64,000 nucleotides of DNA from a virus. Taxonomy: Duplodnaviria > Caudoviricetes. The number at the start of each line of letters is the position of its first letter. Position 1 is the stretch's first letter. Both the position numbers and the translations under genes were made by a program. Under the pieces are notes generated by a model. It ran no database searches, had not been told where the DNA came from, and saw only the letters and a list, made by a program, of their open reading frames with translations. Positions 20,574-26,374 of the stretch are shown piece by piece. The stretch covers positions 481-64,480 of IMG/VR virus record IMGVR_UViG_3300015375_000872; one strand, 5' to 3'.

Positions 20574-22652
20574 ATGATTGGAAAAACTGTTAAGTTTAGA
20601 GTAAGTGATAAAAATATAATTCAAAATTTTTTAGTTGTAGAGGAATTTGACAATCAGGTCAAAATTGTTCATGAAGACTTGATAGGGGTTGAGAGTTGTG
20701 AACAATGGGTAGATAAGTCAAAAATTATAATTCAGCCTATTGACGGCCAAGTGTGTGCTGATAGTAATAGAGAAGCGGTCAAGGTTATTGATAATAAAGT
20801 AATAGTTAACGAGAAAGATTTAAAAATATTTGATAGAACTTCTAAACTTATTCCTGATTGGAAACCGAAACGAGATTTAAAACCTTTTAATCAGGTTAAA
20901 ACAATTTATATTGACATTGAAACTTTAGGACTAGACCCTGAGAAAGATAGGATTATTTATATCGGTTTAAAATATTCATCAGGTTACGGTTTTGAAGATA
21001 ATAAAGACCGATTTGAATTAATAACTCATTCTGATGAAAAAATATTATTAGAAAAGTTTGTTAAAATTTTAAAACAATATAAACCTGAGATTTTATCAGG
21101 TTATAACTCGCTACAATTTGATATTCCATTCATAATCAAAAGATGTGAAATATTAGGAGTTAAGCACCCATTTAAAACATCTGATTACAGGGTTACAGTC
21201 AAGACAGCGCAGGTATTTGGTGAAGCAATAAGTTTTCAATCATGCTATCTCTGGGATACTTCATTGATTGACATTTATCATCAAGTGTTAATTCTTGATA
21301 ATGTTAAGCGGGTGCTGACATCTCACACGCTCAAGCAAGCCACAATTCAGATGGGATTGCGTAAAGAACAACGGCTTGAGTTAAGCTATCAAGAGATTCA
21401 AGAATGTTGGCATAAAGGTGATTTAGAAACAATTGAAACATACCTTAAATATGACTTAGATGATACTGAGTTGTTGACTGATTTTTTACTACCATCCGTT
21501 TACTATCAACAGATATTTGTTCCTGGTATGAATGTTCAACGGTTAGCGACAACCGGGAATGGTACAAAATGGCAAGCTGTACTAGAGGAACAATATCATG
21601 AGATAGGTAAAGGAGTATTAGAACCCGATAACCCTTGTGATTATATTGGAGGTTACACAACGGGTTATGCAGGGTTACATCGGAATGTATCAAAGGTTGA
21701 CGTTAGCTCCCTCTACCCATCAATCATGTTAACCTATGGCATCACATCAAGTAAGGATAAAGATAATAAATTTTTAGGTGTTTTAAAATATTTATTGACT
21801 GAAAGATTGCGTTTAAAATATTTAGCTAAAACTGACCCTGAAGCAAATTTAATGCAGGGAGCGTTAAAAGTTCTCATCAATAGCGGGTATGGGGCGTTAA
21901 GCACTAATGGTATACCTTTTAATGATTATGTAGCTGCTGCACTGGTGACAGCTTATGGTCGAAGAATTGCTAATTTAATGGTTGAAATTATTGAGCGTGA
22001 AGGTGGGAAAATCGTAGAAGTTGACACTGATGGTGTAATGTTTAGTTGTTTACCAGGAGACAATCAAAGGATATTTGAAATAGTTCGTGATAACCTTCCT
22101 GATGGTATTGGTTTAGAACATGAATGGCAGGCAAAAGCCGTTTTCATTCCGCCTGTTGACCGTGATTCTAGTGATGGTCTTAGAAAAAATTATTTAGTAT
22201 TTATGCCTAATGGAAAGGTGAAGGCAACCGGAAAGTTTAGAAAGCGTGATGTTTCTGAGCTTGAGAAAAACTTTGTAATTGAATACCTTAAAAATTATCT
22301 TGATAGTCCAGAAAATGCTGAAAAATATTTTAAAGAGAATTTGGATAATATTTTATCTGGTAATTATGAAGTTGATAAATTAAAAATTACCCGTAAGATA
22401 CGAAGGCGAGAAATTGAACTTTTAAAACTTGGTAATCAAGGTGATGTTATCAGTTTTTATGAGACCGATAAAGGTAAGGGTGTCACTGGCGATTATTCAG
22501 TCTCATACTATCAGAATAAAATCAAAAGTATGAGAGAAGAATTATTAACCATTGTTGACCCTGATTTGTTATCAAGGAATCAGAATATTGTTGATGATTC
22601 TTTTGTTGACAATAATACCGTTCAGTTATCTTTATTTTCACAATTAGCTTAG
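20574..22652 (+). CDS. polB: Family B DNA polymerase with 3'-5' exonuclease
   Basis: ExoI DIET, ExoII YNSLQFD, motif A DVSSLYPSIM, motif B KVLINSGYG, motif C VDTDG; C-terminal QLSLF. Confidence 0.93.
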   Translation: MIGKTVKFRVSDKNIIQNFLVVEEFDNQVKIVHEDLIGVESCEQWVDKSKIIIQPIDGQVCADSNREAVKVIDNKVIVNEKDLKIFDRTSKLIPDWKPKRDLKPFNQVKTIYIDIETLGLDPEKDRIIYIGLKYSSGYGFEDNKDRFELITHSDEKILLEKFVKILKQYKPEILSGYNSLQFDIPFIIKRCEILGVKHPFKTSDYRVTVKTAQVFGEAISFQSCYLWDTSLIDIYHQVLILDNVKRVLTSHTLKQATIQMGLRKEQRLELSYQEIQECWHKGDLETIETYLKYDLDDTELLTDFLLPSVYYQQIFVPGMNVQRLATTGNGTKWQAVLEEQYHEIGKGVLEPDNPCDYIGGYTTGYAGLHRNVSKVDVSSLYPSIMLTYGITSSKDKDNKFLGVLKYLLTERLRLKYLAKTDPEANLMQGALKVLINSGYGALSTNGIPFNDYVAAALVTAYGRRIANLMVEIIEREGGKIVEVDTDGVMFSCLPGDNQRIFEIVRDNLPDGIGLEHEWQAKAVFIPPVDRDSSDGLRKNYLVFMPNGKVKATGKFRKRDVSELEKNFVIEYLKNYLDSPENAEKYFKENLDNILSGNYEVDKLKITRKIRRREIELLKLGNQGDVISFYETDKGKGVTGDYSVSYYQNKIKSMREELLTIVDPDLLSRNQNIVDDSFVDNNTVQLSLFSQLA

Positions 22653-22665
22653 GAGTATTTAAACC

Positions 22666-23787
22666 ATGAAATTCATCATCAATCAAGACAAGCTGAATAA
22701 ATATTTAGCCTTTGTTTCTAAAGCTGTTCCTTCACGCCCTAATCATCCAATATTAGCCAATATCCTATTGGATGCTACCAGTGAAAAACAAAAAGTGAAT
22801 CTATCCGGTTTCGATTTAAGTATGGCAATAAAAGCCGAAATTGATGCGGAAGTTAATGAAGGCGGTCAAATGTTACTCCCATCTAAACTATTAACAGATA
22901 TCATATCTAAGCTTGTTGGCGACATTCTTTTTGAATCTAAGGGCGATATCATAAAAATTAAATCGGGCGGTTCTAAGTACCAAATTCAAGGGATGACAGC
23001 AATAGAAGAATATCCTGAATTGGAAACAATTAATGATAACTCTACTGAAATTGAAATTAGTGGTGATACCTTTCTCAAAGGTTTAAAAGGTACATTATTT
23101 GCGTCAAGTCAAGATGAAACAAAGCAAATATTAACCGGAATAAATCTTATTGTTGACCGTGTAGGTTTACACTTTGCTGCAACTGATGGGCATCGGTTAA
23201 GTTATGTTTTAATTGAAAATTTTGATGATGAAAAAGATGAACCATCATCGTTAACTATTCCTTCAAAAGCGTTGAGAGAGGTTAAGCAAATGATAGTAAC
23301 TGATGATAATTTAAAACTTGAATTTGATGATTGTAAGATTTTATTCGATATGGGTGATATTAAACTGCACTGCTTAAAAATGGAGGGGGTATTCCCATCT
23401 TATCAACAGTTAATACCTAAAAGTTTTAACATTTTAATCAACGTTGATAGACGTAATTTCATAGGGTCTTTAGAGCGTGTATCAATTGTTTCTAATTGTA
23501 ATAATGGCATTGCTACCTGTACTGTTGATACTGAAAATCAAATGGTTGGTATATCAGCGATTGCTTCTGATGTTGGAAATGCTAATGAATCTTTACCAGC
23601 ACAAATTACAGGTGATTCATTAGCATTTGCTTTTAATGTTAAGTATTTATTGGAGGGATTAAAAACCATAAATTCAACTGAAATTCAGTTTTCATTGATA
23701 TCAAATACTTCACCATTCACTGTTTCACCTCTTGGTGGTGATGTTAAATCAACTTACTTGGTTATGCCAGTACAATTAAGAAATTAG
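22666..23787 (+). CDS. dnaN: DNA polymerase III beta sliding clamp
   Basis: HPILANILL, AATDGHRL, FNVKYL and C-terminal YLVMPVQLRN, a cyanobacterial-type ending. Confidence 0.95.
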   Translation: MKFIINQDKLNKYLAFVSKAVPSRPNHPILANILLDATSEKQKVNLSGFDLSMAIKAEIDAEVNEGGQMLLPSKLLTDIISKLVGDILFESKGDIIKIKSGGSKYQIQGMTAIEEYPELETINDNSTEIEISGDTFLKGLKGTLFASSQDETKQILTGINLIVDRVGLHFAATDGHRLSYVLIENFDDEKDEPSSLTIPSKALREVKQMIVTDDNLKLEFDDCKILFDMGDIKLHCLKMEGVFPSYQQLIPKSFNILINVDRRNFIGSLERVSIVSNCNNGIATCTVDTENQMVGISAIASDVGNANESLPAQITGDSLAFAFNVKYLLEGLKTINSTEIQFSLISNTSPFTVSPLGGDVKSTYLVMPVQLRN

Positions 23788-23823: not shown

Positions 23824-24021
23824 ATGTTGATTGAACCTTACACCGGATTACGATTGATTGATTTAGCAACACTAAAAGATGATGAACCGTTCATTATTCC
23901 TAATTTAAACGGTTTAAAAATTGTAGCAACATCTCAACCTGAAAACTATAAAGGCACTGGGATTGAATTGCCTCAAATACCAGGTAAAACCTTTATTATT
24001 TTTAAAGATTCTAATATTTGA
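23824..24021 (+). CDS. Hypothetical protein
   Basis: AAGGAG RBS, 65 aa. Confidence 0.65.
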   Translation: MLIEPYTGLRLIDLATLKDDEPFIIPNLNGLKIVATSQPENYKGTGIELPQIPGKTFIIFKDSNI

Positions 24022-24036
24022 TAATTATAATAATAA

Positions 24037-24045
24037 TGTTATAAT
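24037..24045 (+). promoter_or_regulatory. Extended -10 promoter upstream of the omega-RNA and original nblA leader
   Basis: TGTTATAAT; the same class appears at 12658 and 15716 and on the minus strand at 14265-14273. Confidence 0.55.
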
Positions 24046-24070
24046 TACATCAATTATTGAGGGATGGAAT

Positions 24071-24310
24071 GTCAACAACCCACCACTAATCGGAGTACCG
24101 ATATAGTGGGGGCTTGAAATATAGCCCAAGTTGACCAGACTGAGTACCTTTGCGGTACTACGTTGGCGGTAAGTGTTAAAGTTCTTACCTACAAATGCGA
24201 AGCTAGTTTGTAGCTCTAAAACTTAAAAGTTAAACAGGTTTAAAGGGTTAAGCCAGTGCTTTTAAGAAAGTACCGACCGCTAACATTGTCGAAGCTAACT
24301 TTACCCTAGA
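24071..24310 (+). ncRNA. omega-RNA (HEARO-type) scaffold
   Basis: GTTGACCAGACT, CTACGTT, CTAGTTTGTAGCTCT and AACATTGTCGAAG elements characteristic of IscB-associated RNAs. Confidence 0.85.
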
Positions 24311-24325
24311 AATAGGAGTTATTTC

Positions 24326-25603
24326 ATGTCTAATTACGTTTTCGTAATTGATACAAATAAACAGCCTCAAACCCCAATACATCCTGCTCAAGCTCGATTG
24401 TTATTAAATCAAGGTCAAGCTGCTGTTTATCGTCGTTATCCGTTCACTCTTATTCTGAAGGAGTCAAAACCCAAGCCCAAAATAGAACCAATTACTCTCA
24501 AAATTGACCCCGGTTCAAAAACAACCGGGATTGCATTAGTTCAGGGAAACAAAGTAATTTGGGGAGCCGAATTGACTCATCGAGGTCAAGTCATTAAAAT
24601 GTCTTTGGAATCCCGACGTTCATTACGCCGTTCCCGAAGAAATCGTCATACTCGATATCGTCAAGCACGGTTTTTAAACCGAAAAAGACGTGAAGGTTGG
24701 TTGGCTCCCAGTCTTCAACATCGAGTCGAAACAACTTTAACTTGGGTGAATAAATTAATTAAGTTTGCACCCATTAGTTCAATTGTTCAAGAGTTAGTTA
24801 GATTTGACTTGCAGCAACTTGAAAATCCTGAAATCTCTGGAATTGAATATCAACAAGGAGAGTTACAAGGATACGAAGTTCGACAATACTTACTGGAGAA
24901 ATGGAGTAGAAAATGTGCTTACTGTGGGATAGAAAACGTACCCCTAGAAGTAGAACATATTCATCCTAAATCTAAAGGCGGAACTGACCGGATTTCTAAT
25001 CTTTGTTTAGCTTGTCATGACTGTAACCAAAAGAAAGGGAGTCAAGATATTCAAGATTTTATGTCGGGTAAACCTGACTTACTGCAACGGATTTTAAGGC
25101 AGGCTAAACAACCGTTAAAAGATGCTACTGCGGTTAATTCAACTCGATGGTCACTGTTTAATCGGTTAAAAGAAACGGGTTTATCTGTTTCTACGGGTAG
25201 TGGGGGTTTAACTAAATTCAATCGAACTCGATTAAACTTACCTAAAACCCATTGGTTAGATGCAGCTTGTGTTGGGAAAGTTGAAGCTTTAAAGGTTTTA
25301 ACTAATAAACCTTTGTTGATTAAGGCAACAGGTCATGGTTCAAGACAAATGTGTCGAACAGACAAATTTGGTTTTCCCTCTCGTTATGTTCCCCGCTTTA
25401 AATTTGTCAAAGGCTTTCAGACTGGAGATATTGTTAAAGCTGTTGTTACCAAAGGCAAGAAAATAGGAACCTATTTTGGACGAATTGCTGTTCGTTCTAG
25501 TGGGAGTTTTAATATCACCCTAAAAGCAGCAATTGTTCAAGGCATCAGCTACAAATATTGCACAACAATTCACAAAAAGGATGGTTATTTGTATGCAACA
25601 TAG
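24326..25603 (+). CDS. iscB: RNA-guided endonuclease IscB
   Basis: PLMP-like N-terminus, RuvC-I IDPGSK, arginine-rich bridge helix RRSLRRSRRNR, RuvC-II QEL, HNH CAYC...EHIHP...NLCLACHDCN, RuvC-III HWLDA. Confidence 0.93.
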   Translation: MSNYVFVIDTNKQPQTPIHPAQARLLLNQGQAAVYRRYPFTLILKESKPKPKIEPITLKIDPGSKTTGIALVQGNKVIWGAELTHRGQVIKMSLESRRSLRRSRRNRHTRYRQARFLNRKRREGWLAPSLQHRVETTLTWVNKLIKFAPISSIVQELVRFDLQQLENPEISGIEYQQGELQGYEVRQYLLEKWSRKCAYCGIENVPLEVEHIHPKSKGGTDRISNLCLACHDCNQKKGSQDIQDFMSGKPDLLQRILRQAKQPLKDATAVNSTRWSLFNRLKETGLSVSTGSGGLTKFNRTRLNLPKTHWLDAACVGKVEALKVLTNKPLLIKATGHGSRQMCRTDKFGFPSRYVPRFKFVKGFQTGDIVKAVVTKGKKIGTYFGRIAVRSSGSFNITLKAAIVQGISYKYCTTIHKKDGYLYAT

Positions 25604-25675
25604 ACCCCGACCCCTTTTTCCTCTCACCGCTAATCGGAGTACCGATTTAGCGGGAGTCTCCAAAGGGGAAGACAG

Positions 25676-25846
25676 ATGAATGAAACCAGTCAATCAAATT
25701 TGACACTAGAGCAACAATTCAAGTTAAAAGCATTGAGTGATGATGTTATGAAATTAACGCTACCAGAAGCTCAAGCTTATCTGATAGAGATGTTTAAAAA
25801 GGATATGGTCAAGGATAATTTGATTAAAGAATGGATGAAACGATAA
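25676..25846 (+). CDS. nblA: Phycobilisome degradation adaptor NblA (missed by ORF track)
   Basis: My translation: MNETSQSNLTLEQQFKLKALSDDVMKLTLPEAQAYLIEMFKKDMVKDNLIKEWMKR*. The LTLEQQF...EAQ..L...M.K.N pattern is the NblA signature. Confidence 0.85.
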   Translation: MNETSQSNLTLEQQFKLKALSDDVMKLTLPEAQAYLIEMFKKDMVKDNLIKEWMKR

Positions 25847-26067
25847 TGGATGAAACAACAAGTTTTCAAGACTTTATAGACATTAATGAAAGTTTGACCT
25901 TGACAGTTGAGCAAGAATTTAGATTAGCTTTAGCTAGAGAGGAAATAAAGGGTTATCCCATGGAAGATTTACAAGACCAATACTTAACCATTTATAGACT
26001 TTTTTTGATGAAGTCTAACCTACTCGAAAAGATGTTAAAAGATAAGGTTTCAGAAATCAATGGATAG
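25846..26067 (+). CDS. nblA: Second, divergent NblA-like protein (track start 25831; ATG 25846 overlaps the nblA stop)
   Basis: LTVEQEFRLALAREEI...DLQDQYLTIYRLFLMKSNLLEKML fits the NblA two-helix pattern; TAATG coupling. Confidence 0.7.
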   Translation: MDETTSFQDFIDINESLTLTVEQEFRLALAREEIKGYPMEDLQDQYLTIYRLFLMKSNLLEKMLKDKVSEING

Positions 26068-26374
26068 TTTTATTGATATCAAGAGAAGCTTTCTGATAGC
26101 TCATCTTGAGTGTACTGTTCCATTCTGGCTAGTAAACCTTAAAGAACGTGGTTTAGTACCAGGTACACCTAGATTCCAAAAAGAGTTAGATAAATGTAAA
26201 CAAGCTGTTTCTTGTGAAGGTGACACTATACTTTACAGGACAAAAGAGACAGCCAAGAATGCAAGTTTATTATCAAAAGGTATAGCTATGATGATAATCG
26301 CTTGTGGTGAAGTTGAGGTGTTTGGAATAGTTTTTAAAGACGTTGATTTTGGAGTTAATAAAAATAATGGATGA
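26060..26374 (+). CDS. Hypothetical protein
   Basis: Overlapping operon gene. Confidence 0.7.
   Translation: MDSFIDIKRSFLIAHLECTVPFWLVNLKERGLVPGTPRFQKELDKCKQAVSCEGDTILYRTKETAKNASLLSKGIAMMIIACGEVEVFGIVFKDVDFGVNKNNG

Follow-up and report, generated by a model that had tools for sequence, protein, structure and literature searches.

IscB nucleases that act with an omega RNA, OgeuIscB among them, were reportedly described by Altae-Tran et al. in 2021. The ISC transposons of cyanobacteria and proteobacteria were characterised by Kapitonov, Makarova & Koonin in 2016 (PMC4810608), and comparison with empty sites showed a 5'-GT(CA) terminus and insertion at N|ATGA. For GstIscB of Geobacillus stearothermophilus, Meers et al. 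(2023; bioRxiv 10.1101/2023.03.14.532601) reported that the guide lies just outside the end of the omega RNA, so that transcription from outside the element is needed, and that a single motif, TTCAT (ATGAA when read along the iscB strand), is recognised by both TnpA and IscB. At the omega-RNA end the corresponding motif departs from TTCAT at positions 3 and 5, and the occupied site is thereby protected; the nuclease cuts the element-free joint, upon which recombination restores the element. Here we describe an IscB element in a 64,000-nt stretch of DNA (the window) from the IMG/VR viral record IMGVR_UViG_3300015375_000872, a 64.5-kb record with an estimated completeness of 68%. The element occupies positions 24071-25675, directly before the start codon of an nblA gene of a cyanophage, and both the occupied and the empty form of this site were detected in nature. 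All features described below for the window are on the + strand.

The element resembled ISC1-1_MA of Microcystis aeruginosa and ISC2-1_MS (PMC4810608) in being a non-autonomous member of the IS200/IS605 superfamily with a Cas9-like protein and a cyanobacterial lineage. As with the ISC elements of that study, a 5'-GTCA terminus was present, the element was located just 5' of ATGA with no duplication, and its boundaries were proven by empty sites. It differed from those elements in being carried by a cyanophage and in that its target ATGA serves as start codon for an auxiliary metabolic gene (AMG). The ATGAA target, the placement of the guide and the mismatch between the end motif and the target-adjacent motif (TAM) at positions 3 and 5 were shared with GstIscB/ISGst; GstIscB, however, was tested in a bacterial chromosome and in plasmids, whereas the present element is known from its sequence and lies in a phage, where a co-infecting genome would take the role of the 'sister copy'. 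Both the N|ATGA target and the logic of IscB homing are known from earlier publications. The element belongs, as an ordinary and intact member, to a transposon family already described, and it does not represent a new type of system. Its novelty is that of an instance, by virtue of its cyanophage carrier, the nblA site and the observation of both alleles in nature.

The boundaries of the element were determined from metagenomes. Most of the sequence words of the stretch were present in 18 public metagenome runs from about a dozen studies, and four of these runs (X1, X17, X18 and X19, each from a separate study) were examined at the contig level. Contigs of 352 nt (X1), 3778 nt (X17) and 2965 nt (X19) joined position 24070 to position 25676; the skipped stretch was 1605 bp long, had GT..AG ends and left zero letters fitting both sides. 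The same junction was detected in X18 as a pair of loose ends, one connecting the last 16 nt of the left flank to 25676 and the other connecting 24070 to ATGAATGAAACC. As the contigs skipped exactly 24071-25675, the boundaries are fixed to the base, and insertion took place without duplication or loss of bases. In the element-free allele, ...GGAAT was joined directly to ATGAAT..., so that the leader is followed by the ATG of nblA. A first-pass annotation of this DNA had predicted such an empty allele and had proposed a search for related genomes carrying it; the prediction agreed to the base with the natural junction, and the search was successful in the three contigs and the one pair of loose ends, which together indicated a presence/absence polymorphism at one precise site in four studies. 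The existence of element-free genomes of the same phage in several metagenomes indicated that the occupied form is a derived, polymorphic allele.

In X1, X17 and X18, pieces that differed from the element at 0-1 positions were joined to other flanks. Homology in these pieces ran from 24071 to 25679/25680, including ATGA(A). These near-identical pieces with other flanks indicated recent movement between sites that have only ATGA(A) in common. The alternative flanks had no other occurrence within the window, and two loose-end right flanks consisted of 11 codons each without a stop, too short to be scored as start codons. Exact-pattern scans, made on collections from which near relatives may be missing, yielded nothing for the predicted empty junction or for the terminus of this element in viral contigs, nothing for the left flank in metagenome contigs and nothing for one alternative right flank. 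In X1, positions 24010-26230 were covered by several separate short contigs with longer single contigs on either side. This break-up is a hint, from contigs whose depths could not be ranked, that several variants of the region around nblA, from different strains, could be present in X1.

The 1605-bp element (5'-GTCA...CAG-3') consisted of an omega RNA scaffold, iscB and two subterminal hairpins. An omega RNA scaffold at 24071-24304 matched the HEARO model over its full length (Rfam RF02033, model positions 1-211, 147.6 bits against a cut-off of 83 bits). The iscB gene (24326-25603) encodes a protein of 425 aa with matches to Pfam RRXRR (1-174/174; 2e-75) and HNH (2e-12), and the RuvC-I Asp, the RuvC-II Glu, the HNH His/Asn with both Cys pairs and the RuvC-III His/Asp motifs were all present in the translation. 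The domain set and the location of a HEARO-type omega RNA directly upstream were the same as in OgeuIscB-type nucleases (structures 7xht and 7utn). In contrast to characterised IscBs, the protein is distant, with matches to the solved structures 9k30, 9k2z, 7xht and 7utn at E-values of 1e-46 to 1e-27, and its TAM is one that we infer. Inverted terminal repeats were absent, and two nearly identical, imperfect hairpins of 27-28 nt were located 10 nt from the boundary at the omega-RNA end (24081-24108; right end [RE] in the TnpA convention) and 21 nt from the boundary at the nblA side (25627-25653; left end [LE]), which is the end geometry of IS200/IS605 elements. The combination of RRXRR and HNH domains, a HEARO RNA, end hairpins and duplication-free insertion identified an ISC-type IscB-omega RNA element, and 24071-25675 is a complete non-autonomous ISC element of the IS200/IS605 family.

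The sequence upstream of the element was inspected as the source of the guide. An extended -10 motif, TGTTATAAT, was located at 24037-24045 and a -35-like TTGATA at 24018-24023, giving a sigma-70-like promoter candidate (24018-24045; TTGATA-16 nt-TG-n-TATAAT) that matches 11/12 consensus positions and has the extended TG. This candidate falls in the sole available spacer and would serve nblA in the empty allele. A putative transcription start near 24052 leaves 19 nt before the scaffold begins at 24071, and the published architecture of IscB systems would place the guide in this segment of the nblA leader (24052-24070), the last 16 nt of which are 24055-24070; the leader carries GAGGGA 6 nt ahead of the junction. 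The guide matched the natural empty allele perfectly, and the only near match to guide plus ATGA within the window was the occupied site itself, which has GTCA in place of the TAM. The putative target and TAM, ATGA(A) at 25676-25680, comprises the nblA start codon and two further bases and reads TTCAT on the TnpA strand, while the motif at the omega-RNA end reads TTGAC and hence differs from it at positions 3 and 5. Every coordinate in the first-pass annotation was correct, from the extended -10 motif and the start near 24052 with 19 nt to 24071 through to the end at 25675, the ATGA and the purine-rich run of the terminus. Its arrangement of a guide 5' of the omega RNA with an ATGA TAM 3' of the target follows the published IscB architecture (bioRxiv 10.1101/2023.03.14.532601; PMC4810608), and no other junction, no TAM unlike ATGA and no omega RNA start inside the element was encountered.

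We consider it likely, at a probability of about 80%, that the element arrived by single-strand 'peel-and-paste' transposition into N|ATGA(A) at the nblA start codon and that it has the homing-type IscB biology known from published work. The element entered a cyanophage genome at the ATGA(A) of the nblA start, and its transposase would have to be supplied in trans by the host or by another element. Transcription from outside the element, probably from 24018-24045, would generate an omega RNA with the nblA leader as its 5' 16-19 nt. IscB with this guide would then cut any genome that has ATGA(A) directly after the leader, as the element-free allele does, and would spare its own copy, where GTCA occupies that place. 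In a co-infected cell, the element-bearing genome would serve as repair template and a copy of the element would thus arrive at the cut site (homing), or else the rival genome would be lost. Expression of nblA would probably continue by read-through from the same promoter, using the unchanged ATG behind the terminal sequence of the element; no intrinsic terminator was predicted on the + strand within the element. The perfect fit of the guide and the setting of co-infection and phage recombination would favour homing. Homing endonucleases of phages, both free-standing and intron-borne, such as T4 SegF and an endonuclease aimed at the psbA intron site of cyanophages (PMC13565253), exhibit a similar presence/absence in near-identical genomes, and there too the predicted target of the nuclease is the allele lacking it. 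They differ from the present system in that recognition here would be by a guide RNA copied from the flank and not by protein, and in that the element has transposon ends and can reach unrelated ATGA sites.

Several observations weigh against this reading. The element-free allele was found in 4/4 of the runs examined, and the element has not swept this phage population. A PF01797 search of the 64.5-kb record (~68% complete) gave no match to a Y1 transposase, which indicated that the element is non-autonomous. The promoter at 24018-24045 is a good consensus match that is predicted only, and the extended -10 motif was found 8 times in this AT-rich window against 6.0 expected, which is not above chance; use of the AMG promoter by IscB, as proposed in the first-pass annotation, would draw on this consensus match. 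Among public runs, no RNA run contained the stretch. The translation of nblA behind the element also bears on this question. A Shine-Dalgarno (SD)-like run, AAAGGGGA, is present at 25662-25669. Its G-run occupies -11 to -8 relative to the nblA ATG, and the AGGG of the native leader has the same spacing. An extended stem-loop was predicted at the iscB-distal end (LE; 25611-25668; -33.5 kcal/mol, z = -3.75), and in its outer stem a C-run is predicted to pair with the G-run of the SD-like sequence. With the run predicted to be base paired, translation of nblA could be reduced and not preserved. A further point came from 67 independent insertions of cyanobacterial and phage elements with both flanks, for which the empty site was reconstructed (drawn from 76 unique sites by removal of orthologous copies and of loci without a placeable end): the share of start-codon insertions was 0.57-0.68 in all four terminus classes, and the SD-like run made no difference.

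A link between SD-like termini and start-codon insertion was therefore rejected, as classes without a purine run were found at start codons equally often. The frequency of an SD-like run in the native left flanks was also near background (12/67, against 14% of random windows). The run AAAGGGGA is conserved as a transposon end in Microcoleus and Planktothrix copies, and this shared terminus indicated that the 'replacement ribosome-binding site' proposed in the first-pass annotation is inherited transposon sequence and not a phage adaptation; the predicted stem and the equal behaviour of the other terminus classes weakened the proposal further. Overall, the observation reported in that annotation was confirmed, and its interpretation was partly supported, in that the predicted empty junction exists in nature; homing of the element, use of the nblA promoter by IscB and action of the terminus as a ribosome-binding site are putative.

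Another explanation, which we regard as rather unlikely, is that the element is a dead-end passenger that jumped into replicating phage DNA from a copy in the host or a co-resident one, with transposase in trans, creating a neutral or mildly harmful, transient allele in whose persistence IscB plays no part. The near-identical pieces with other flanks in the same metagenomes, the element-free allele in all four runs and the phage record without a transposase are all consistent with such an event, as is the cyanobacterial origin of the closest IscB proteins (a Planktothrix metagenome-assembled genome [MAG], 82%, and Planktothrix PCC 11201, 79%). Set against these points, the element is intact in iscB, in the omega RNA and at both ends, the guide is a perfect match to the empty allele, and phage co-infection is a setting in which a nuclease directed against the empty allele pays off. 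Moreover, arrival by transposition is compatible with later homing, and this explanation differs from the one that we prefer only on whether IscB acts.

An explanation that we judge decidedly improbable is that the phage has recruited the element, retaining it either because IscB destroys element-free competitors (interference competition) or because nblA is expressed differently with the insertion in place, for example through coupling to iscB translation. The guide is aimed at the common element-free allele, and an intron endonuclease provides a documented case of nuclease-mediated competition between co-infecting phages (cited in PMC13565253). The iscB stop codon (25601-25603) is located 8 nt ahead of the stem that sequesters the SD-like run, and it may be speculated that a terminating iscB ribosome could open this stem and couple nblA translation to that of iscB. 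Against this, nothing points to fixation or to loss of the transposon ends; with both hairpins preserved, the element still looks mobile and not domesticated. An assembly chimera, in which the phage contig was misjoined through a repeated insertion sequence lying elsewhere, is very unlikely: although the listed contig pieces with element ends in the four runs carried other flanks and none bridged the phage flank to the element (contigs drop rare variants and cannot show absence), flank and element share no letters on the left and only ATGA(A) on the right, far too little for a graph join, and the joint follows the N|ATGA rule to the base with no base lost or added relative to the natural empty allele.

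Natural IscB insertions for which both alleles are documented in the wild are few. At the nblA locus the occupied allele is represented by the contig and the empty allele by four studies, and with both alleles known, the target of the native guide is defined without reconstruction. The system is suited to asking whether OMEGA nucleases drive themselves through phage populations. For cyanophage biology, the locus demonstrates that a gene-dense phage genome can accommodate a mobile element lodged between the leader and the coding sequence of an auxiliary gene.

The placement of insertions relative to start codons was then compared between the 67 independent insertions and 1329 control ATGA sites within the same flanks. 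The target ATG opened an open reading frame (ORF) of at least 60 codons in 42/67 insertions and 222/1329 controls, and it was the first ATG of such an ORF in 33/67 insertions and 87/1329 controls (odds ratio 13.9, p = 1e-19). When ORFs of at least 100 codons were used to classify sites as start, intergenic or intragenic, the insertions were distributed 29/26/12 and the controls 45/326/824, with a p value of 6e-11 for start versus intergenic sites. Enrichment at start codons was 8-fold even against intergenic ATGA sites and ranged from 8- to 14-fold across comparisons. A Pfam check of 10 such ORFs detected 7 recognisable genes, encoding a zinc alcohol dehydrogenase, SucD, FtsZ, an aminotransferase, an AI-2E transporter, an epimerase and an NDH/Mrp antiporter-type subunit, with domains beginning from residue about 1. 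The FtsZ case was a related IscB element in an Oscillatoriales MAG (L047, 2848-4125) that was located directly on the ftsZ start codon (Pfam Tubulin and FtsZ_C). The essential gene ftsZ evidently tolerates this element, which must permit read-through transcription and initiation.

These counts add quantitative support for start-codon placement in this family. Survivorship, in which disruption of genes is avoided, accounts for the scarcity of insertions within genes but leaves the excess over intergenic sites unexplained. The need for sense transcription of the guide from outside the element would be a natural second factor for this excess, as a start-codon position would leave the gene whole and also guarantee sense transcription across the guide. 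No statement of a start-codon excess was found in the IscB/ISC literature examined, and the phrase 'start codon' is absent from the full text of PMC4810608. Geobacillus insertions were reported to be co-oriented with the upstream gene (bioRxiv 10.1101/2023.03.14.532601), and start-codon placement may account for the published bias in how iscB is oriented with respect to the genes upstream. A more tentative proposal, to which we give somewhat less than even odds, is that ISC elements with an ATGA(A) target have evolved a 'start-codon docking', with the start codon as TAM and the final 16 nt of the leader as guide, so that the guide would be transcribed in sense at every site. The terminus would then form the new leader, and even essential genes such as ftsZ would tolerate the insertion. 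In phages, such docking would amount to an RNA-programmed gene drive between co-infecting genomes, at this locus directed at an auxiliary photosynthesis-related gene.

The closest IscB proteins were cyanobacterial. Besides the two Planktothrix proteins, many Microcoleus copies had IscB proteins with 75-78% identity, and IscB relatives were present in 34 IMG/VR loci. In nearly all relatives, the omega RNA began with GTCA or GTAA, and the other end consisted of a hairpin and 21-25 nt followed by ATGA. The conserved terminus was followed by ATGA in 76/76 unique relatives, with A at the fifth position in 47/76, and the terminus of the window element was of the Microcoleus/Planktothrix type with two base changes. 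A metagenome scan with the exact terminus detected two miniatures of 60-61 nt, L116 (854-914) and L117 (3468-3527), with fused ends and one hairpin. Both are derivatives of the window element with the same ends (100% over 56 nt in L116). Each lay in the narrow gap between two closely spaced ORFs and was followed immediately by the ATGA with which an ORF begins, and in L116 the upstream ORF runs through the miniature and stops at the TGA of this ATGA. Fused ends with one hairpin only are also a feature of the PATEs, miniature IS200/IS605 derivatives (Meers et al. 2023); what sets L116 and L117 apart from PATEs is that both are positioned, to the base, ahead of an ORF's ATGA start codon.

An unusual arrangement was observed in a 4.1-kb viral contig (L002), in which an IscB element lies between perfect 40-nt direct repeats (628-667 and 2253-2292). 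The repeat begins with ATGA and forms the start of the downstream ORF, and the omega RNA is without its first ~34 model positions. As IS200/605 elements make no duplications, this locus looks like a product of aberrant repair or recombination.

The gene order around the insertion was a bacterial-type clamp gene, a 65-aa ORF, a 49-nt AT-rich spacer, HEARO, iscB, 72 nt of non-coding sequence and two NblA genes. The 65-aa ORF (23824-24021) has no Pfam family, and its TGA stop overlaps the -35-like hexamer. The first nblA copy (25676-25846) encodes 56 aa and matched Pfam NblA (PF04485, 3e-15), with residues 8-56 aligned to profile positions 1-49 of 50 and no second in-frame ATG ahead of the NblA domain. 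A second nblA paralogue of 78 aa (25831-26067; Pfam NblA, 3.2e-6) begins within the 3' end of the first, so that two overlapping genes, both above the Pfam NblA cut-off, are arranged in tandem at 25676-26067. No isolated relative of the phage was detected when the region and each flank were compared by megablast and blastn with 50,697 phage records, in which only distant relatives of the family-B polymerase (PolB) were present, and a query with the clamp protein found no related IMG/VR contigs. The PolB had 41-46% aa identity to that of Nostoc, Anabaena and Dolichospermum phages of similar size. At 20574-23787, the polymerase gene is followed directly by that of a bacterial-type beta clamp with all three DnaN domains (Pfam), a pairing that is unusual for a phage replisome.

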